Source of the DNA: Escherichia coli
Lineage (GTDB): Bacteria; Pseudomonadota; Gammaproteobacteria; Enterobacterales; Enterobacteriaceae
Strand: one strand, 5' to 3'
Assembly: GCF_048403405.1 (NCBI RefSeq)
Contig: NZ_CP183129.1
DNA: 64,000 nt
Below are positions 1,185 through 54,433 of this stretch, piece by piece (positions within the stretch are counted from its first letter, which is position 1; each line of letters begins with the position of its first letter). Made by a program: the position numbers and the translations under genes. The notes below the pieces were generated by a model. That model worked only from the letters and a program-made list of their open reading frames with translations. It ran no database searches and was not told the DNA's origin.

Positions 1185-1763
1185 TCAGGGTTTCACACCA
1201 ATTTGCAGCGCCAGCTCACGAATTATGCCTGCGGTCATTCCCCATACAAAATACTGTTCGTACCAGGACAGCCATACCCGATGTGAATCGCCACGGCGGT
1301 AGATATCTAAAGGGTGATAACGACCCAGATGTAATGCCTGGGCGAGCGGCATTTCAAACACCGCCGAGACTTCATCTTCACTGGCGCGATACGGCAGATC
1401 GGGCGGGATAATGCCGACCACTGGGGTTACCTGGTAGCCAGTTACGCTATCGACGGGCGGCAGCACGCCGATAACTTCAACGGCGGAAGGCGGTATAGCG
1501 ACCTCTTCTTCAGCTTCGCGCAGCGCGGCGGCGATAACTGATGCATCCGTGTCATCGACTGCGCCTCCAGGGAATGCCACTTGTCCAGCGTGTTTACGCA
1601 GATGAATTGAACGCTGAGTCAGCAACAACCCCGGTTGCGGTCGACGGACGATGGGGATTAACACGGCAGCCTGACGATGATTTAGGGTTTCCCGGTTAAT
1701 TTGCGGGCGCAAAAGTTGAAAGCGCGATAAAAAATCATCAAGCGTCAGGCTACGGTATTCCAC
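1185..1763 (-). CDS. nudL: CoA pyrophosphohydrolase, Nudix family
   Basis: 192-aa ORF with Nudix box [25 protein letters not shown]. Confidence 0.9.
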
Positions 1764-1766
1764 GTC

Positions 1767-3128
1767 TTACTTCTCCAGTTGGCGTAATATCTTATTAACT
1801 TTATCAAAAGTTTCCTGATATTCCGCTTCTTCCTGGCTATCGGCGACAATTCCACCGCCCGCAGAGCAGTATATTTGTCCGTTAATGGCAGTCAGAGTGC
1901 GGATAGTAATGCTGGTGTCCATGTTGCCGCAAAAGCTCAAATAGCCAATGCTGCCGCACCAGGCATTACGTCGCTGCGGTTCCAGTTCGTCGATAATTTC
2001 CATAGCCCGTACTTTCGGAGCCCCGGTTATTGAGCCACCAGGAAAAGCTGCGCGCAGCAGATCGCTGGCGTGTAACTGTTCTGGTAGTTGCGCCGTTATG
2101 GTGCTGACCAGATGATGCACGGCAGGGAAGGGTTCCACCACGAACAGCTCTGGTACTTTTACCGAACCTGCTACGGCAACACGACCGATATCATTACGCA
2201 TTAAATCGACAATCATCAGATTTTCGGCACGATCTTTCGCTGAGTTCGCCAGTTTTTCTGCTTGTTTGCTATCTTCCTGAGGATCGGGCAGGCGTGGTAG
2301 CGTGCCTTTAATCGGGCGGGTCTGGATTTCACTATTATCACAAAGGATAAACCGCTCTGGCGAAAGGCTTAAAATCGCACCCTGTTCAAGACGTAAAAAA
2401 GCGCTAAACGGCGCGCGGTTGGCCTGATTAAGCTGAAGGAATGCCTGCCATTCATCGCCAGAATAGGTCGCATGAAAACGCTGGGCGAGATTCACCTGAT
2501 AGCAATCACCGCTGTGCAGATATTCCTGTACCTGGCGAAATTTTTCGCCGTACTGCTCGCGGGTCATATTGGATTGCCAGTCGGAAGTGAGCGTGAAATC
2601 TTCCTGCGGGGAGAATTGCTGGCTTTCCAGCCATGCCCGACGGGCATTGACATCATTATGACTCAGCAAAGAAACTGTATGACGCTGGTGGTCAACAACC
2701 AGCGCCCAGTCGTAGATACCCACTGCCATATCCGGCAGAACGATATCTTGCTGCGCAATTTCTGGCAGTGACTCAAAACGGCGGCCCAGATCGTAGCCAA
2801 ACAACCCCAGTGCGCCGCCCTGAAATGGCAAATCTTCGTTATGCGTTGGGCGAATGTCTGCGCGATCCAGCACCTGCTGGAGCACCTGTAGCGGGTCATC
2901 AGTGGTCGTTGTGCGTTTTTCGCTTTCACTAACAACGGTTTCTTTACCGAAAGTGGTTAAAGTGCAAATCGGCTCGGCGACCACAATATCAAAGCGGCTA
3001 TATGGATGATCGGCATAGCCGGAGTGTAAAAGCATCGCCCACGGCAGGTGGCTTAAGCGGGAGAAATAAAATTCAGCGGCGTCCTGACGCCAGGGTAAAG
3101 TAATCACAGCGGGAGATAACGTCTTCAT
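1767..3128 (-). CDS. pabB: aminodeoxychorismate synthase component I
   Basis: 453-aa ORF, chorismate-binding enzyme family (…SLSPERF…, …PGGSITGAPK…); 3 bp downstream-adjacent to nudL. Confidence 0.93.
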   Translation of the reverse strand: MKTLSPAVITLPWRQDAAEFYFSRLSHLPWAMLLHSGYADHPYSRFDIVVAEPICTLTTFGKETVVSESEKRTTTTDDPLQVLQQVLDRADIRPTHNEDLPFQGGALGLFGYDLGRRFESLPEIAQQDIVLPDMAVGIYDWALVVDHQRHTVSLLSHNDVNARRAWLESQQFSPQEDFTLTSDWQSNMTREQYGEKFRQVQEYLHSGDCYQVNLAQRFHATYSGDEWQAFLQLNQANRAPFSAFLRLEQGAILSLSPERFILCDNSEIQTRPIKGTLPRLPDPQEDSKQAEKLANSAKDRAENLMIVDLMRNDIGRVAVAGSVKVPELFVVEPFPAVHHLVSTITAQLPEQLHASDLLRAAFPGGSITGAPKVRAMEIIDELEPQRRNAWCGSIGYLSFCGNMDTSITIRTLTAINGQIYCSAGGGIVADSQEEAEYQETFDKVNKILRQLEK

Positions 3129-3200
3129 CAGTCCTGACTCTACTGGCTATGTGCCGGGTAGCATGAAATAATTAGCGCCAACAATTTAGCAGGAGTTAAC

Positions 3201-3381
3201 AATGTTTGCAGGTTTACCTTCACTCACCCATGAACAGCAGCAAAAAGCCGTCGAGCGGATCCAGGAACTGATGGCACAAGGGATGAGCAGCGGCCAGGCA
3301 ATCGCGCTGGTGGCAGAAGAGCTGCGTGCCAACCATTCCGGCGAGCGAATCGTGGCGCGTTTTGAGGATGAAGACGAGTAA
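3201..3381 (+). CDS. yoaH: small UPF0181-family protein (59 aa)
   Basis: ATG at 3201 preceded by AGGAG; reads [59 protein letters not shown]; below ORF-track size cutoff. Confidence 0.75.
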
Positions 3382-3435
3382 CACACTAATCCGTATCGCT
3401 TTCGTTATAGAAGCCGATGATTATTTGATTGTGAG

Positions 3436-3472
3436 AAAAAGGACGCTTTTCATATGTGATTAAAAGCGTCCT
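3436..3472 (-). terminator. intrinsic terminator hairpin between convergent yoaH and yoaC
   Basis: Inverted repeat AGGACGCTTTT / AAAAGCGTCCT with 11-nt loop; A-run on plus side gives a U-tract for the minus-strand yoaC transcript. Confidence 0.6.
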
Positions 3473-3500
3473 GACCCATTTATGCTGATGTAAATTTTAC

Positions 3501-3800
3501 TCAGACCAGTGCTTTTAGTTCTTCCTGCATATATGTTGAAAAGTATTCAGGATTTTTAATCACAATGCGTTCACCAGACTCCATTTTTTTTGCCCATCCA
3601 ACCATTTTTTCCGTGAACCCCGGGTTCCAGCCTTCCTGGTCAGCTCGCGCCGTAATATCGGCGGCGCTCGCGGGTACTCCCAGTTCTTTTAAATATTTAA
3701 AGATTCCCTTCGCCGTGCTTTCATTCATCGAACTTGGTGTTGGTGCTGATACATCCATGGCACCAATGAAATCCAGGGCTTTATCTATTACAGCAGGCAT
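3501..3800 (-). CDS. yoaC: DUF1889 family protein
   Basis: Track ORF 3501..3860; internal ATG at 3800 (MPAVIDKALDF…) has an AAGGA ribosome-binding site, the 3860 start has none; gives 99 aa. Confidence 0.8.
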   Translation of the reverse strand: MPAVIDKALDFIGAMDVSAPTPSSMNESTAKGIFKYLKELGVPASAADITARADQEGWNPGFTEKMVGWAKKMESGERIVIKNPEYFSTYMQEELKALV

Positions 3801-4221
3801 ATTCTTATCCTTAAAATTAACCATGTTATCGATAAGGCTATATATGACCTTAATTTGCATCTAATATCAAAGGGATTATAACGATATGGCACGAGTTAAC
3901 CTGTTGACATTCAGGTGTTTTAAAGGTAGCAGTTCATGGTGTGTTATCCAGTAAGAGGGAGAAAATTGACGGTCAGTTCTCACGCTATAACCAAATTGTT
4001 CAGCTAAGAAAGAAAACCAGAGATGCTAATCGAAGGGCGAACACAACGGCATGGTTATGTTTATTTATATAGTTAGCTTTATAGCTAAAATTGAAATTAT
4101 AAAAATAAATAATGAATTAGCAGGAGCATCAACAGTAATATCTTAATCTCTGGTCGATTTATGTAAAACCGACCAGTATTATCGATAAATTATCGTCTGA
4201 CTTATTTTGCTTCGATAAAGC

Positions 4222-4566
4222 TTACACCGCAGCCACAATCTTAATTTCAACTTTATACTTCGGGTTCATCAAACCCGCTTGTACCGTGCAGCGCACCGGC
4301 GCATGACCCGCGACAACCCAGGCATCCCACGCTTTATTCATCGCCGCGAAGTCGTTTTTATCGGCCAGGAAAATGGTGGCATCCAGAATGCTCGATTTAT
4401 TGCTGCCCTGTTTTTCCAGCACGGCGTCAATCTGCGCCAGCGTGTTGGCGGTTTGCTCAAAGGCATCGGCGTCGAGGTTTTCCGGTACACCAGTGTAGTA
4501 GAGCGTGTTGTTGTGGATTACTACATCAGACCAGCGGGCTTCAGCATCGATACGAACGATAGTCAT
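4222..4566 (-). CDS. yoaB: RidA/YjgF-family protein
   Basis: Track ORF 4222..4614; start chosen at MTIVRIDAEARW… giving 114 aa. Confidence 0.8.
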   Translation of the reverse strand: MTIVRIDAEARWSDVVIHNNTLYYTGVPENLDADAFEQTANTLAQIDAVLEKQGSNKSSILDATIFLADKNDFAAMNKAWDAWVVAGHAPVRCTVQAGLMNPKYKVEIKIVAAV

Positions 4567-4697
4567 CATTTTGTCCTCATTATCCTTCCATTTTCGTGCT
4601 GCAAAGACTGCCACAATGTGAGGTCGCCGTCACCACTTCAACTGGCGAAAGCGCCCTCATCCTGACATAATCCCTGTTCAAATCAACAGGGGGTAGT

Positions 4698-6608
4698 GTG
4701 ACGGACGATTTTGCACCAGACGGTCAGTTGGCGAAAGCGATACCGGGCTTTAAGCCGCGAGAACCACAGCGACAGATGGCGGTAGCCGTCACCCAGGCGA
4801 TAGAAAAAGGCCAGCCGCTGGTGGTGGAAGCCGGAACCGGTACGGGCAAAACCTACGCTTACCTGGCCCCTGCGCTGCGGGCGAAAAAGAAAGTCATTAT
4901 CTCGACCGGTTCAAAAGCGTTGCAGGATCAGCTCTACAGCCGCGATTTGCCAACAGTCTCAAAGGCATTGAAATATACGGGCAACGTGGCGCTGCTGAAA
5001 GGGCGCTCAAACTACCTCTGCCTCGAACGTCTCGAACAACAGGCGCTAGCGGGCGGCGATCTGCCGGTACAAATCTTAAGCGATGTGATCCTGCTGCGCT
5101 CCTGGTCTAATCAAACAGTCGATGGTGATATCAGCACCTGCGTCAGCGTGGCGGAAGATTCACAGGCGTGGCCGCTGGTCACCAGCACCAACGACAACTG
5201 TCTTGGCAGCGACTGCCCGATGTATAAAGATTGCTTTGTGGTCAAAGCACGCAAAAAAACGATGGACGCCGATGTGGTGGTGGTAAACCATCATCTCTTT
5301 CTGGCGGATATGGTGGTGAAAGAGAGTGGATTTGGCGAACTGATCCCGGAAGCTGACGTGATGATCTTCGACGAAGCCCACCAACTGCCCGACATTGCCA
5401 GCCAGTATTTTGGTCAGTCACTCTCCAGTCGACAACTGCTCGACCTGGCAAAAGACATCACCATCGCCTATCGCACCGAATTAAAAGATACTCAGCAGTT
5501 ACAAAAGTGCGCCGACCGCCTTGCCCAGAGCGCGCAGGATTTTCGTCTGCAACTCGGTGAGCCTGGTTATCGTGGCAACCTGCGCGAACTGTTAGCTAAT
5601 CCGCAAATTCAGCGAGCATTTTTACTGCTCGATGACACCCTGGAACTTTGTTATGACGTGGCGAAACTGTCGCTGGGGCGCTCCGCCTTGCTGGATGCGG
5701 CATTTGAGCGCGCCACGTTGTATCGTACGCGGCTGAAACGGCTAAAAGAGATCAATCAGCCAGGCTACAGCTACTGGTACGAATGCACTTCGCGCCATTT
5801 TACTCTGGCACTCACGCCGCTCAGCGTGGCGGATAAATTTAAAGAGTTAATGGCGCAAAAGCCAGGTAGCTGGATTTTTACCTCGGCAACGCTGTCGGTG
5901 AACGACGATCTGCATCATTTCACCTCGCGGCTTGGCATCGAACAGGCGGAGTCGTTGCTGTTACCCAGCCCCTTTGATTACAGCCGCCAGGCGTTACTCT
6001 GTGTGCCGCGCAACCTGCCGCAAACTAATCAACCGGGTTCCGCACGGCAACTGGCGGCAATGCTGCGACCGATCATCGAAGCTAACAACGGTCGTTGTTT
6101 TATGCTTTGTACCTCGCACGCCATGATGCGCGATCTGGCTGAGCAGTTCCGCGCTACCATGACGCTTCCCGTTTTGTTGCAGGGGGAAACCAGCAAAGGG
6201 CAACTGTTGCAGCAATTTGTCAGCGCCGGTAACGCGCTTCTTGTGGCAACCAGCAGCTTCTGGGAAGGGGTGGATGTGCGTGGCGATACATTGTCGCTGG
6301 TGATTATCGACAAGTTGCCGTTTACCTCACCGGATGATCCACTATTAAAAGCGCGCATGGAAGATTGTCGTTTGCGCGGAGGCGACCCGTTCGATGAAGT
6401 ACAGCTGCCGGATGCGGTCATTACTCTCAAGCAGGGAGTAGGGCGATTGATTCGCGACGCCGACGATCGAGGGGTTTTGGTGATTTGCGATAATCGGCTG
6501 GTGATGCGCCCTTACGGCGCGACGTTTCTCGCCAGTCTGCCGCCAGCGCCGCGCACCCGTGACATTGCCCGTGCGGTTCGTTTCCTTGCGATACCATCCT
6601 CCAGGTAA
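4698..6608 (+). CDS. yoaA: ATP-dependent DNA helicase, DinG family
   Basis: 636-aa ORF, GTG start; Walker A AGTGTGKT and DEAH box (MIFDEAHQL). Confidence 0.93.
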   Translation: MTDDFAPDGQLAKAIPGFKPREPQRQMAVAVTQAIEKGQPLVVEAGTGTGKTYAYLAPALRAKKKVIISTGSKALQDQLYSRDLPTVSKALKYTGNVALLKGRSNYLCLERLEQQALAGGDLPVQILSDVILLRSWSNQTVDGDISTCVSVAEDSQAWPLVTSTNDNCLGSDCPMYKDCFVVKARKKTMDADVVVVNHHLFLADMVVKESGFGELIPEADVMIFDEAHQLPDIASQYFGQSLSSRQLLDLAKDITIAYRTELKDTQQLQKCADRLAQSAQDFRLQLGEPGYRGNLRELLANPQIQRAFLLLDDTLELCYDVAKLSLGRSALLDAAFERATLYRTRLKRLKEINQPGYSYWYECTSRHFTLALTPLSVADKFKELMAQKPGSWIFTSATLSVNDDLHHFTSRLGIEQAESLLLPSPFDYSRQALLCVPRNLPQTNQPGSARQLAAMLRPIIEANNGRCFMLCTSHAMMRDLAEQFRATMTLPVLLQGETSKGQLLQQFVSAGNALLVATSSFWEGVDVRGDTLSLVIIDKLPFTSPDDPLLKARMEDCRLRGGDPFDEVQLPDAVITLKQGVGRLIRDADDRGVLVICDNRLVMRPYGATFLASLPPAPRTRDIARAVRFLAIPSSR

Positions 6609-24625: not shown

Positions 24626-25976
24626 TCATGAACGGCTGTTTTTGTTCTGCTTATTGACATATAAACGCTCATCGGAAGCTTTATACGCATCATGTAACGT
24701 ATCGTTTTCTTTCATCGCGTAAATACCGGAAGAGAAGCCGATCTCTTTCTGCGGCGCGATATGTTGCAGACGTTTTTCGATACGTTCAGGCAGTTGTGCT
24801 GCAATTTGCGGCGTCGAATCGACTAGAATGATGCAGAATTCATCGCCACCGAGTCGGATGGCATAATCACTTTTACGAATCGACTGTTTAATCGCCTGAG
24901 CTAATAACGTAATCGCTAAATCCCCCTCCTGATGACCGAGGGTGTCATTTATTTGCTTTAACTTGTCCATGTCAATTGCAATAAACATCACCGAAGAACC
25001 GGATTGCACCAGTTTTTGCAACCGCTGCTCCAGTTCAGGGGTTAAAATTTTGCGATTATACAGTCCTGTCATCGCATCACTAATATTTTCTCGCGACACA
25101 TTTTGGTATAAACGGAAGTGCATCCGCACCATATTCAGCAAAATTAACGCCGTCAAAATCCAGAACAGAACGCTTTTCCACGAAGACGTGATAAAGTAAA
25201 GAATATCAATGGATAACGAGACACGAATGCCGCCCGGTAAGTCATGGACGTAACTGACATACTGGAACAGATTATCTTCGCTCTGGTTGATGATAATGTC
25301 GCGCCCCGAATCGGTATCGGTTAGCGTGACATTGAGAAAACGCCAGAGGAGAGGGCGGTCATGAGTGTAAAAGATATTCCGCAGATTGTTTTTGTTAATA
25401 TCCAGCAGCACAATCCCTTTTAGCTGCCCTGCGACATATACCGGCGTCAGCAAACTCATCACGTTCTGTTTAGTACGCTGATCCTGGTAAATGCTCGATA
25501 AAACGGTACGCCCGGTAAATACCTTTTCAATATCTTTGCGATCGATGCCAATACTTCCTGACTGCAGGAAAGACCAGTTATTCATCGCAAAGTACTCAAC
25601 ATTAACCGGCTCATAAAAATAGACATAGCGGTCATTGAGATCGAGATAATAGTGAAATTTCTCGTCGGCCATCCCAAGACCTGAACCGTAATCATCCTGG
25701 TGGCGGTTGCCTTCCACTGCCTGATCAAAAGCGGGTAATAGTGCTGCAGCTTCCACAATTGTGTCGCAGTCAGTGGATGCGGTTTGTAGTGTGCCGCGTA
25801 AGCCAGGGTATTTATGGGCAGTCAGGTTTAAGCCATGGGTATTATTTGCAGACTCAAAAGCCTCGCAGATGGTGCGCCGCTGTTCTGGCGACAAGTTCAA
25901 AAATAAGGAAGGAAGATGTCAGCACAATGACACTTGCGGCGATAAAATGCCGGAGCATTCTATGGTGCAATTTCAT
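24626..25976 (-). pseudogene. dgcJ: diguanylate cyclase DgcJ, N-terminal segment out of frame with the body
   Basis: ATG at 25976 encodes the TM N-terminus MKLHHRMLRHFIAASVIVLTSSFLIFELV…, which stops at 25854; the 424-aa body (…RxxD I-site RKSD, GGDEF RLGGDEFCIIL) is in the +1 frame from 25900. Confidence 0.75.
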
Positions 25977-49893: not shown

Positions 49894-50009
49894 TAATTGT
49901 CGCGAAACTGTCTGGATTGTGAGCAAAGGCGCAGGAATTCAGACACTCTCACTTATCACTTCACGGAATGAGGGTTACCATACCCGGATTGCATTGACAG
50001 GAGATGTCC

Positions 50010-51053
50010 ATGAGCGAGAACTCGATTCGTTTGACCCAATACAGCCACGGAGCTGGTTGCGGCTGTAAAATTTCCCCAAAAGTGTTGGAAACCATCCTGC
50101 ACAGTGAGCAGGCGAAGTTTGTTGATCCGAATTTGCTTGTGGGTAATGAAACCCGCGACGATGCGGCGGTGTACGATCTGGGCAATGGCACCAGCGTTAT
50201 CAGTACCACCGACTTCTTTATGCCGATCGTTGATAATCCTTTCGATTTTGGCCGCATTGCGGCGACTAACGCCATCAGCGATATCTTCGCGATGGGGGGC
50301 AAACCGATTATGGCGATTGCGATCCTCGGCTGGCCGATTAACAAACTTTCCCCGGAAATTGCCCGCGAAGTAACCGAAGGTGGACGCTATGCATGCCGTC
50401 AGGCGGGTATTGCGCTGGCTGGCGGTCACTCCATCGATGCGCCGGAGCCGATTTTTGGTCTGGCGGTAACGGGGATCGTACCGACCGAGCGGGTGAAGAA
50501 AAACAGTACCGCACAAGCCGGATGCAAACTGTTCCTGACGAAACCGCTGGGGATCGGCGTTCTTACCACGGCTGAGAAAAAATCACTGCTGAAACCAGAA
50601 CATCAGGGACTGGCGACGGAAGTGATGTGCCGGATGAACATCGCAGGCGCGTCCTTTGCCAACATCGAAGGCGTAAAAGCGATGACCGACGTTACGGGCT
50701 TTGGTCTGCTGGGGCATTTAAGCGAAATGTGTCAGGGTGCTGGTGTGCAGGCGCGCGTCGACTATGAAGCGATCCCGAAACTGCCGGGGGTTGAAGAGTA
50801 CATTAAGTTGGGCGCAGTGCCTGGCGGCACCGAACGTAACTTTGCCAGCTACGGTCATCTGATGGGTGAAATGCCGCGTGAAGTGCGCGATCTGCTGTGC
50901 GATCCGCAAACTTCTGGCGGTCTGCTGCTGGCGGTCATGCCGGAAGCAGAAAATGAGGTCAAAGCTACAGCCGCCGAGTTTGGCATTGAACTGACGGCGA
51001 TTGGCGAACTGGTGCCAGCGCGCGGCGGTCGTGCCATGGTTGAGATCCGTTAA
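50010..51053 (+). CDS. selD: selenide, water dikinase (selenophosphate synthetase)
   Basis: Start taken at [23 protein letters not shown]… (347 aa); PurM-like fold. Confidence 0.92.
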
Positions 51054-51057
51054 TTCA

Positions 51058-53013
51058 ATGCGGTTGTTTATTGCCGAAAAACCGAGTCTGGCGCGCGCCA
51101 TTGCTGATGTCCTGCCCAAACCGCACCGGAAAGGCGATGGCTTTATCGAGTGCGGTAATGGTCAGGTGGTGACCTGGTGTATCGGTCACCTGCTTGAGCA
51201 GGCGCAGCCAGACGCCTACGACAGCCGCTATGCGCGCTGGAATCTTGCTGATTTGCCGATTGTCCCGGAAAAGTGGCAATTACAGCCCCGACCCTCCGTG
51301 ACCAAACAACTTAATGTCATCAAACGCTTCCTGCATGAAGCCAGCGAAATCGTTCACGCCGGTGACCCGGATCGCGAAGGGCAATTACTGGTGGATGAAG
51401 TGCTGGACTATCTGCAACTGGCACCGGAAAAGCGCCAGCAGGTGCAGCGTTGCTTGATAAACGACCTGAACCCGCAGGCGGTTGAGCGGGCGATCGACCG
51501 TCTTCGTTCCAACAGTGAGTTTGTGCCGTTGTGCGTTTCTGCACTGGCGCGAGCCCGAGCCGACTGGCTGTACGGCATCAATATGACCCGCGCTTACACC
51601 ATTCTCGGTCGCAATGCGGGTTATCAGGGCGTACTTTCCGTGGGACGCGTGCAGACGCCCGTACTCGGACTGGTGGTGCGCCGCGACGAAGAGATTGAAA
51701 ACTTCGTGGCGAAAGATTTCTTTGAAGTCAAAGCGCATATCGTGACACCTGCCGATGAGCGGTTTACCGCTATCTGGCAACCGAGCGAAGCGTGTGAACC
51801 TTATCAGGATGAAGAAGGGCGCTTGTTACATCGTCCGCTGGCGGAGCATGTGGTCAACCGCATCAGCGGCCAACCGGCTATTGTCACCAGCTATAACGAT
51901 AAACGGGAATCAGAATCCGCACCGCTGCCGTTTTCGCTTTCGGCGTTGCAGATTGAAGCGGCAAAACGCTTTGGTCTGAGTGCGCAGAACGTGCTTGATA
52001 TCTGCCAGAAGTTGTACGAAACGCACAAGCTAATCACTTATCCGCGTTCCGATTGTCGCTATCTGCCGGAAGAGCATTTTGCCGGACGCCACGCAGTGAT
52101 GAATGCCATCAGCGTTCATGCACCGGACTTGTTACCGCAGCCAGTGGTCGATCCAGATATACGCAACCGCTGCTGGGATGACAAAAAGGTCGATGCGCAC
52201 CACGCCATCATCCCGACCGCACGGAGTTCTGCGATCAACCTGACGGAGAACGAAGCGAAGGTCTATAACCTGATTGCCCGTCAGTATTTGATGCAGTTCT
52301 GCCCGGATGCGGTGTTCCGCAAGTGTGTTATCGAACTGGATATTGCCAAAGGCAAATTTGTCGCTAAAGCGCGTTTTCTTGCTGAAGCAGGCTGGCGCAC
52401 GCTGTTAGGCAGCAAAGAGCGCGATGAAGAAAACGACGGTACGCCATTGCCTGTGGTGGCGAAAGGCGATGAGTTGCTGTGTGAAAAAGGTGAAGTGGTA
52501 GAGCGGCAAACCCAGCCGCCGCGTCATTTTACCGATGCAACACTGCTTTCGGCGATGACCGGGATAGCACGTTTTGTGCAGGACAAAGATCTGAAAAAGA
52601 TCCTTCGTGCGACCGATGGTCTGGGGACAGAAGCGACTCGCGCCGGGATTATTGAACTGCTGTTCAAGCGAGGCTTCCTGACCAAAAAAGGGCGCTATAT
52701 CCACTCCACCGACGCCGGAAAAGCATTATTCCATTCGCTGCCAGAGATGGCGACGCGACCGGACATGACCGCGCACTGGGAATCGGTGCTGACGCAAATC
52801 AGCGAAAAGCAGTGTCGCTACCAGGACTTTATGCAACCGCTGGTGGGGACATTGTACCAGTTGATTGATCAGGCAAAGCGCACGTCGGTAAGGCAGTTTC
52901 GGGGAATAATGGCTCCCGGCGGTGGAGAAGGGAAGAAAAAGGATTCGCCACGCAAGAGAGCGCCGAAAAAAAGCCCGCCATCAGAAGAGGCGGGCAATGG
53001 AGTGATAACATAA
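51058..53013 (+). CDS. topB: DNA topoisomerase III
   Basis: Start taken at ATG 51058 ([19 protein letters not shown]…), 4 bp after the selD stop; Toprim and type IA topoisomerase domains; lysine-rich C-terminal tail. Confidence 0.92.
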
Positions 53014-53050
53014 AGGTTCTTTCAACCATCTGATACTGAAGATTTTTATG

Positions 53051-53080
53051 GCCGGATTAGGCGTTTGCGCTGTATCCGGC
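53051..53080. repeat. REP-like palindrome between convergent topB and gdhA
   Basis: GCCGGATTAGGCGTTTGCGCTGTATCCGGC: arms GCCGGAT / ATCCGGC. Confidence 0.55.
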
Positions 53081-53089
53081 ACAATTGTC

Positions 53090-54433
53090 TTAAATCACGC
53101 CCTGGCTTAACATCGCATCCGCAACCTTCACAAAACCGGCAATGTTCGCGCCCTGCACGTAGTTGGTTTGCTCACCTTCACCACCATGCTCAACACAGGC
53201 ATGGTGGATATCCAGCATGATGTGATGCAAACGTGCGTCAACTTTCTCGGCTTTCCAGCCCAGGCGCGCAGCGTTTTGCGCCATTTCCAGGCCCGATGTT
53301 GCTACACCGCCAGCATTAGCCGCTTTACCCGGTGCAAACAGTACGCCTGCCTGCTGGAACAGTTCAGTCGCTTCGATGGTGGTCGGCATATTTGCCCCTT
53401 CGGCGACGGCTTTAACGCCATTGGCGATAAGCTGATGCGCGGCGTCAACATCCAGTTCGTTCTGGGTGGCGCAAGGCAGGGCGATATCAACTGGTACAGA
53501 CCACGGCTGTTGGCCTTCGAGATAGACCAGACCAAATTCTTTGGCGTAATCTGCCACTCGACCATCGCGGCTGGCTTTGATTTCGATAAGACGCGCCAGT
53601 TTCTCTTTCGTGAATCCGCTTTCATCAACTACAGTGCCACTGGAGTCTGACGCAGTGATCACACGAGCACCAAATTCCATCGCTTTTTCGATAGCGTACT
53701 GGGCGACGTTGCCGGAGCCAGAAACGGAAACGCGCATTCCTTCAAAACCCATACCGTGGCGTTTTAGCATTGCTTCTGTGAAATAAACCAGACCGTAGCC
53801 GGTAGCTTCCGGGCGAATAAGACTGCCGCCAAATGAAAGGCCCTTACCGGTGAAGACGCAGGCGGTATTGTTGGAGAGCTTTTTCATCATCCCCGCCATA
53901 AAGCCGACTTCACGACCACCAACCCCGATATCACCTGCCGGAACGTCGGTATCCGCGCCCAGGTGGCGATACAGTTCAGTCATCAGCGCCTGGCAAAAAC
54001 GCATCACTTCACCTTCGCTTTTTCCTTTCGGATCGAAATCGCTGCCGCCTTTACCACCGCCCATCGGCAGAGTAGTCAGGGCATTTTTGAAGGTTTGTTC
54101 GAAGCCGAGGAATTTGAGAATGGAAAGGTTAACTGACGGATGGAAGCGCATACCGCCTTTGTACGGGCCGATGGCAGAGCTGAACTGCACACGCCATGCA
54201 CGGTTGACCTGTACCTGGTTGCGATCATCAACCCATACCACGCGAAACTGGATCACGCGCTCCGGTTCAACCAGACGCTCCAGTAATGACATCTGGCGAT
54301 ATTTTGGATTTTGTTCAAGAAAAGGCCAGAGTGTGGTCATTACTTCACGAACGGCTTGCGCGAACTCGGTTTGATTCGGGTCGCGCTTTTGGACATGGTT
54401 GAGGAATGACTCCAGAGAATATGTCTGATCCAT
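53090..54433 (-). CDS. gdhA: NADP-specific glutamate dehydrogenase
   Basis: 447-aa ORF MDQTYSLESFLNHVQKRDP…; Glu/Leu/Phe/Val dehydrogenase family. Confidence 0.95.
   Translation of the reverse strand: MDQTYSLESFLNHVQKRDPNQTEFAQAVREVMTTLWPFLEQNPKYRQMSLLERLVEPERVIQFRVVWVDDRNQVQVNRAWRVQFSSAIGPYKGGMRFHPSVNLSILKFLGFEQTFKNALTTLPMGGGKGGSDFDPKGKSEGEVMRFCQALMTELYRHLGADTDVPAGDIGVGGREVGFMAGMMKKLSNNTACVFTGKGLSFGGSLIRPEATGYGLVYFTEAMLKRHGMGFEGMRVSVSGSGNVAQYAIEKAMEFGARVITASDSSGTVVDESGFTKEKLARLIEIKASRDGRVADYAKEFGLVYLEGQQPWSVPVDIALPCATQNELDVDAAHQLIANGVKAVAEGANMPTTIEATELFQQAGVLFAPGKAANAGGVATSGLEMAQNAARLGWKAEKVDARLHHIMLDIHHACVEHGGEGEQTNYVQGANIAGFVKVADAMLSQGVI

Follow-up and report, generated by a model that had tools for sequence, protein, structure and literature searches.

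A REP-only spacer between convergent topB and gdhA as the probable empty allele of a multi-allelic accessory-gene site in Escherichia coli

The spacer between the convergent genes topB and gdhA in a 64,000-nucleotide stretch of E. coli DNA (hereafter the window) has counterparts among several described systems. REP elements, or palindromic units (PUs), form hairpins that shield upstream mRNA against 3′ exonucleases and can hinder transcription, and those within ~15 nt of a stop codon reportedly can lower expression of the upstream gene. They are also documented targets for insertion sequences, with IS1397 reported to insert specifically into the REPs of E. coli (PMC1525189). The palindrome in the window resembles these elements in being GC-rich, imperfect, ~30-35 bp long and extragenic between convergent genes, and in being a site hit by IS1397 and a member of a repeat with at least 40 near-identical copies per genome. 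It is nevertheless a single, somewhat degenerate unit, whereas in K-12 a two-unit BIME lies next to gdhA.

At the same chromosomal site, K-12 MG1655 carries ynjI (b1762), a DUF1266 inner-membrane protein gene co-directional with topB in a 1,284-bp spacer, which is reported to be under BglJ-RcsB activation and moderate H-NS/StpA repression (PMC3950696). The window differs in having neither the gene nor a remnant of it, and the K-12 allele has another TopB tail and another REP cluster. A further point of reference is the K-12 ybeQ-ybeR-djlB-ybeT-ybeU-djlC-hscC cluster, which draws on the same protein families as YnjI and a second cargo of the site, an Hsp70 and J-domain/Sel1 cassette, combined: DUF1266 (YnjI; YbeR and YbeU), Hsp70 (HscC), J domain (DjlB and DjlC), and Sel1 (YbeQ and YbeT). 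However, YnjI resembles YbeR and YbeU at the Pfam-domain level only, with no BLASTP match at E<=0.01, and none of the genes of that cluster occurs in the window.

The core-genome-flanked hotspots of E. coli offer the broadest comparison, since there too conserved flanks enclose alternative cargos at one site. At topB-gdhA, in contrast, the cargo is very small (zero to three genes) and bears no tRNA, integrase or phage signature, and one boundary falls inside the 3′ end of a core gene, so that cargo and TopB tail change hands together. Our literature search found no paper describing the topB-gdhA site as a hotspot.

Here we argue that the place where the 3′ ends of topB and gdhA converge is an accessory-gene site with several alleles, of which the window likely carries the ‘empty’ one, with a REP hairpin in its spacer; that the window haplotype most likely never received ynjI; and that alleles at the site would be exchanged by recombination in the flanks. 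In kind, this is a standard REP-only convergent spacer combined with an ordinary accessory-gene polymorphism: the same junction is already present and annotated in >1,500 public genomes. Alone it carries little weight; K-12 differs from other E. coli in many such small accessory-gene features.

The junction and its REP palindrome

The junction and its neighbors are laid out in the window as follows.

50004-51053, + strand: selD, the conserved upstream neighbor (open reading frame, 100% tblastn self-match)
51058-53013, + strand: topB, intact, encoding DNA topoisomerase III of 651 aa (open reading frame list, tblastn)
52874-53013, + strand: variable 3′ end of topB, which codes for the basic C-terminal tail and forms the left portion of the polymorphic module
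53014-53089, no strand: 76-bp convergent intergenic spacer, the ‘empty’ allele without ynjI (sequence, genome counts)
53051-53080, no strand: single REP or palindromic unit, GCCGGAT...ATCCGGC (pattern, shuffles, hairpin stability)
53065-53068, no strand: center of the REP, TTGC, where IS1397 inserted in ETEC4077 (these 4 bp are duplicated there)
53090-54433, − strand: gdhA, intact, encoding NADP-specific glutamate dehydrogenase of 447 aa; its stop is the fixed right edge of the module

An earlier note on this DNA had reported a convergent gap of 76 bp holding only a REP-like palindrome, and both parts of that description stand. The topB stop, TAA, occupies 53011-53013 and the gdhA stop, on the complement, 53090-53092, which makes the coordinates of the gap (53014-53089) exact; the only elements between the stops are one REP palindromic unit and a brief stretch of unique sequence. 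Both flanks are conserved: the selD-topB order is kept in most of 80 species loci, and gdhA-ynjH is likewise a conserved flank on the other side. The annotated equivalent of topB in near-identical genomes measures 1,956 bp. A tblastn search of the 64-kb window with YnjI returned no YnjI-like coding sequence, only one spurious weak match elsewhere in the window.

The non-K-12 background proposed in the earlier note is borne out. Positions 40000-64000 are 100% identical to six non-K-12 genomes, MS 69-1 for example, and their identity to K-12 is ~92-99% depending on the segment. No paper giving the phylogroup of MS 69-1 turned up in a literature search. The lesion in dgcJ that the note had invoked is equally real, consisting of a 140-bp deletion and a frameshift after codon 30 relative to MS 69-1.

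The palindrome itself, GCCGGATTAGGCGTTTGCGCTGTATCCGGC, spans 53051-53080, 37 nt past the topB stop and 9 nt short of that of gdhA. Its arms conform to GCC(G/T)GAT...ATC(C/A)GGC within a GC-rich imperfect palindrome of the ~30-40 bp characteristic of REPs, and its position between the stops of convergent topB and gdhA is extragenic, as for REPs. The REP-type pattern occurs once in the 64-kb window against 0.00 occurrences expected from shuffles, and the spacer hairpin is stable on both strands (z = -3.3 and -3.6). The unit may be of the Y type of PU, going by the published consensus.

Three independent lines establish that the palindrome is a genuine REP. One is the existence of consensus copies: the form GTAGGCCGGATAAGGCGTTTACGCCGCATCCGGCAG occurs at the same place in the Escherichia loci L009 and L010, the window unit is identical to the L009 copy at 28 of 36 positions when aligned to the same position, and the consensus 36-mer recurs at 40 or more unannotated places per genome in 5,425 of 5,426 E. 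coli genomes, so that, by way of the L009 form, the unit belongs to a dispersed repeat. Another is the behavior of an insertion sequence that targets REPs, for in ETEC4077 IS1397 sits inside a window-type spacer, at the center of the palindrome, with TTGC (53065-53068) duplicated. The remaining line is a match to the Rfam family naRNA4 over the palindrome (53050-53096), which is sub-threshold at 30.4 bits against a gathering score of 59.5; naRNA4 presumably derives from REP325 elements. As a candidate for a known RNA family in the spacer, this sub-threshold match at the REP was the only one, and such an identity was rejected.

A simple consensus scan of 52800-53300 for a GC-rich hairpin followed by a T-run found no intrinsic terminator on either strand, and a simple scan of the spacer found no promoter. 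With no T-run, the REP hairpin is not a canonical intrinsic terminator. By analogy with known REPs, the hairpin, lying at the 3′ ends of both convergent transcripts, would probably act as a 3′-end stabilizer or as a barrier to transcription, and it is also a landing site for the REP-specific IS1397. The K-12 REP likewise lies ~9 nt from the gdhA stop, and a stop-proximal REP is therefore common to both alleles.

Alleles in E. coli and across the Enterobacteriaceae

Population counts were taken over 5,426 complete E. coli genomes. The contiguous window-type junction occurs in 1,514 of them, and the 11 rows sampled from these are single-piece alignments at 98.2-100% identity, an O25b:H4-ST131 genome included. 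A ynjI spacer is found in 3,506 (3,457 at full length), among them K-12 derivatives, BL21(DE3), O157:H7, O55:H7 and O111:H8, while a further 369, including CFT073, 536 and ATCC 25922, carry between topB and gdhA a cassette encoding an Hsp70 and J-domain/Sel1 proteins. Together the empty, ynjI and cassette classes account for 5,389 genomes, and the remainder includes IS variants and deletions. The suggestion in the earlier note that the junction is a point of gene-content variation holds to a greater degree than the note supposed, with at least three major E. coli alleles (empty, ynjI and Hsp70/J-Sel1) in addition to the IS variants. So does its placement of ynjI between gdhA and topB in K-12, which it was prepared to abandon had K-12 shown the same 76-bp junction: in MG1655 the spacer is 1,284 bp long and contains the gene.

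The K-12 allele is a module in its own right, comprising a distinct TopB C-terminal tail, a 127-bp promoter region, a low-GC ynjI and the two-REP BIME. The GC fraction of ynjI is 0.35-0.45, against 0.50-0.59 in the flanks; low GC and repression by H-NS/StpA are together the usual profile of horizontally acquired genes.

The cassette pairs an Hsp70-family protein sharing 43% identity with HscC and a J-domain protein containing Sel1 repeats. Some cassettes, as in GN02323 and CFT073, have in addition an upstream gene for a secreted-looking hypothetical protein of 266 aa, and that of strain 536 has a second J/Sel1 gene. Cassette alleles bring their own TopB tail, ...VKKAPNKRVKKAAKP..., and a non-REP hairpin before gdhA. 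NCBIfam models were of little help in classifying the cargos, giving generic DnaK/HscA and Sel1 matches below cut-off and an uninformative ynjI equivalog. A defense-system identity was considered and rejected, PADLOC having returned only marginal partial matches over short stretches (E 2e-4 and 6e-6) and none for YnjI. The GN02323 cassette occupies 1435-5945 of locus L003, and the cassette is present in loci L005-L008 as well.

Outside E. coli, a TopB search taking one genome per species returned 80 Enterobacteriaceae loci. In 57 of these 80 species representatives gdhA converges on topB, and in 45 of the 57 the spacer is shorter than 200 bp and usually made of REPs. Only one of the 57 has ynjI, namely Escherichia sp. 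MOD1-EC7003, whose spacer measures 1,284 bp and whose YnjI shows 91% identity; the other 56 lack it. Spacers range from 29 bp in Salmonella enterica subsp. diarizonae and 15-188 bp in Citrobacter to 95 bp in Escherichia sp. E1V33 and 81 bp in E. coli SCPM-O-B-8794. E. albertii NBRC 107761 (L011, 6100-6435) has a 260-bp spacer with two REP clusters and no ynjI. In this E. albertii genome a premature stop also leaves the TopB tail ~25 residues shorter.

Further sequences were seen at the junction in other genera. A small open reading frame of 56-57 aa (M[NS]E[YQ]K...[DE]LTA[KD]EQIAIILKRHREIVSSLV) is conserved in the topB-gdhA spacer of Phytobacter massiliensis (L047, 9136-9309), a Kosakonia sp. 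(L053, 9128-9298) and an Enterobacteriaceae MAG (L071, 9096-9269). Elsewhere, unrelated cargos of 3.5-5.7 kb occupy the site (L051, 8936-12967; L054, 5775-11424; L063, 8987-12532; L073, 8948-12763). Labeled from ORF lengths and N-terminal sequences only, they comprise a duplicated block of low GC (0.38) whose N-termini are Hcp-like, a porin/PTS-like set, TRAP-transporter-like genes, and a group of LysR-type regulator, enolase-superfamily-like and MFS-like genes.

Insertion or deletion

The earlier note left open whether the junction marks an insertion or a deletion. The evidence favors a window that is uninserted and a K-12 allele with an added module. Across the Enterobacteriaceae a short spacer made of REPs is the commonest arrangement, upon which K-12-like strains would carry an addition, and the low GC of ynjI points the same way. 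Within the window, the last topB codons, the stop context (GGAGTGATAACATAAAGG) and the position of the REP match in alignment those of L009, L010 and L011, three Escherichia loci without ynjI. Nor does the 76-bp spacer hold any remnant of ynjI, its local alignment to the K-12 spacer being no better than that of shuffles. Because both spacer and TopB tail have their orthologs in Escherichia species without ynjI and no remnant of the gene is present, an uninserted haplotype of ancestral type is most likely; the window haplotype would never have received the ynjI module, and a recent deletion is unlikely.

Loss is the foremost alternative. In that account the window lineage lost ynjI by deletion, possibly long ago and with the empty haplotype spreading afterwards, and the 76 bp are the scar. 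Such an event draws plausibility from ynjI being the majority state in E. coli (3,506 of 5,426 genomes), from the age of the gene at this site, and from the fact that deletions do occur at the junction, as in strain A10, where IS1 removed the cassette, and in HH97, where ynjI is partially lost in sequence of doubtful quality. Yet a simple deletion of ynjI would not give a topB whose last 140 nt are 68.6% identical to K-12. The window spacer also retains no trace of ynjI, of its promoter or of a K-12-type BIME, and both spacer and TopB tail are orthologous to those of Escherichia species without the gene. A spacer below 200 bp in 45 of the 57 representatives that keep the junction, and the absence of ynjI from 56 of them, likewise tell against loss. 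Finally, a true secondary deletion looks different: in A10 an IS1 was left behind, topB was truncated, and the terminal 64 bp of the cassette spacer were kept. We therefore consider loss unlikely, although within E. coli the polarity of the change is probable rather than proven.

The details of A10 are worth recording. At 2248-2945 of locus L097, IS1 replaces the Hsp70 cassette, of whose spacer the last 64 bp survive. Its topB is annotated as a pseudogene without the C-terminus, such that the strain is apparently without intact topoisomerase III.

The age of ynjI at the site is apparent from its relatives. The YnjI family forms eight clusters in a database of 5.8 billion proteins, and all relatives at >=58% identity sit between topB and gdhA, with amino acid identities of 91% (L012), 80% (P0003), 68% (P0005), 60% (P0006) and 58% (P0007). 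On these sequence comparisons, with alleles at 91, 80, 68, 60 and 58% identity and some of them in other genera, ynjI is old at the topB-gdhA site. Between K-12 and MOD1-EC7003, ynjI has diverged about as much as the flanks have, from which it follows that the presence/absence polymorphism may go back further than E. coli itself. Members of the family seem to occupy a single chromosomal site. In the P0003 genome the flanks are only ~80% identical to K-12, and the TopB tail is that of Pseudocitrobacter faecalis.

Relatives at 58-80% identity (L094, L095, L098 and L099) come from metagenome or run assemblies of other enterobacteria and occupy the same topB-gdhA site. The next relative is only 25% identical and stands in an unrelated context (L100).

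Two resemblances between K-12 and Pseudocitrobacter were also noted. The two-REP BIME between ynjI and gdhA in K-12 (L001, 5716-5831) is very like the whole topB-gdhA spacers of Pseudocitrobacter and Citrobacter sp. NCU1 (L025, L026 and L028), and the K-12-type TopB tail resembles the Pseudocitrobacter tail. These likenesses could reflect shared ancestry of the ynjI haplotype or the general similarity of BIME copies. A Pseudocitrobacter-like donor for the 3′ half of K-12 topB was entertained, given the similar tails, but not adopted, as the body of topB is no closer to that lineage.

Extent of the module and its route of exchange

The unit that varies is larger than the intergenic spacer. Toward gdhA, all other alleles become homologous to the window again at 53089/53090, exactly at the stop. 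On the topB side homology breaks within the coding sequence, at 52874 for GN02323, 536 and MS8320, at 52927 for mip270_04 and C10, and at 52985 for K-12. Over the final 140 nt of topB, the window and K-12 share 68.6% identity, a value of the order seen between genera, against 93-95% for the preceding 460 nt. The basic C-terminal tail of TopB differs from one allele class to the next, with those of the window and of K-12 both resembling outgroup tails, and the last ~45 residues of TopB are exchanged together with the cargo.

A rare mosaic ynjI in E. coli (P0005; L091, 5001-6032) places a further breakpoint. The first 45 codons match K-12 exactly, and the promoter region, BIME and flanks do so at 97-100%, while the rest of the open reading frame falls to ~77% nucleotide and 68% protein identity. 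The drop after codon 45 indicates a breakpoint inside ynjI.

No meaningful direct or inverted repeats were found flanking ynjI or the cassette, and the annotated alleles contain no integrase, transposase, tRNA or att site, such that they do not qualify as an island or a product of site-specific integration. What is found instead is the profile of a homologous-replacement hotspot, with conserved flanks, three major alleles in E. coli, and unrelated cargos in other genera. The absence of flanking repeats, the breakpoints inside topB and at the gdhA stop, and the mosaic ynjI together suggest homologous recombination. Judging from this anatomy, exchange probably proceeds by homologous recombination in the conserved flanks, with breakpoints that would fall in the last ~30-140 nt of topB on one side and exactly at the gdhA stop on the other.

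A more ambitious proposal can be built on the same observations. It would make topB-gdhA an Enterobacteriaceae-wide replacement hotspot in which cargo is swapped with the basic tail of TopB, and in which YnjI and the Hsp70/J/Sel1 proteins are interchangeable parts of a chaperone-like system of HscC type, whose polymorphism is maintained by diversifying selection, such as might arise in conflicts with phages or with other cells. Divergent and mosaic ynjI alleles in near-identical backgrounds would fit diversifying selection; taken as a whole, we regard the proposal as distinctly doubtful.

Exchange could also be credited to a mobile element or to site-specific integration with the REP as attachment site, in place of recombination in the flanks. 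REPs are, after all, documented IS targets (PMC1525189), IS1397 has landed in the window-type REP of ETEC4077, and many unrelated cargos have arrived at the topB-gdhA junction in other genera. Nonetheless, ynjI and the Hsp70 cassette come without integrase, transposase, terminal inverted repeats or target duplications at their bounds. The left boundary, moreover, lies inside the topB coding sequence and varies by allele (52874, 52927 or 52985), and the breakpoint of the mosaic ynjI within its reading frame fits homologous exchange. We accordingly judge such a route very unlikely. That the short junction is an artifact of assembly or collapse, or its palindrome a product of chance, is scarcely credible: beyond the corrupted sequence at this locus in at least one public genome (HH97), nothing speaks for it, whereas 1,514 complete genomes of varied origin have this contiguous junction, identity to six genomes is 100% across 24 kb, topB and gdhA are both intact in the window, and the palindrome pattern, expected 0.00 times in the window, belongs to a repeat with at least 40 copies per genome.

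The junction is useful as a strain or haplotype marker. It also offers a clean example of a REP-only convergent spacer as the baseline state at which small modules are gained, replaced and hit by insertion sequences. Several aspects are mildly interesting beyond this: the TopB tail moves along with the cargo, YnjI forms what is essentially a one-site family, HscC-like Hsp70/J/Sel1 proteins serve as an alternative cargo, and the site is multi-allelic, with unrelated cargos in other genera.

Two minor observations concern sequence integrity. In HH97 (L004, 5100-5500), ~400 bp of G/T-rich, almost A/C-free sequence replaces part of ynjI. Its 544-bp spacer was considered as an intermediate between the window and ynjI alleles and rejected, being mostly corrupted, G/T-only sequence beside a TopB tail of K-12 type; the locus is probably a long-read assembly or polishing artifact combined with a partial deletion of ynjI. 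The first 30 nt after the topB stop in HH97 match the window spacer at 24 of 28 positions.

The dgcJ deletion maps to 25884-25893 of the window (dgcJ lies on the − strand, at about 24627-25976). It falls between short direct repeats (…CTGTTCTGGCGAC / …CTGTCACTGGCGAC), with a stop soon after the frameshift, and in the otherwise near-identical MS 69-1 dgcJ is annotated as intact, at 496 aa.
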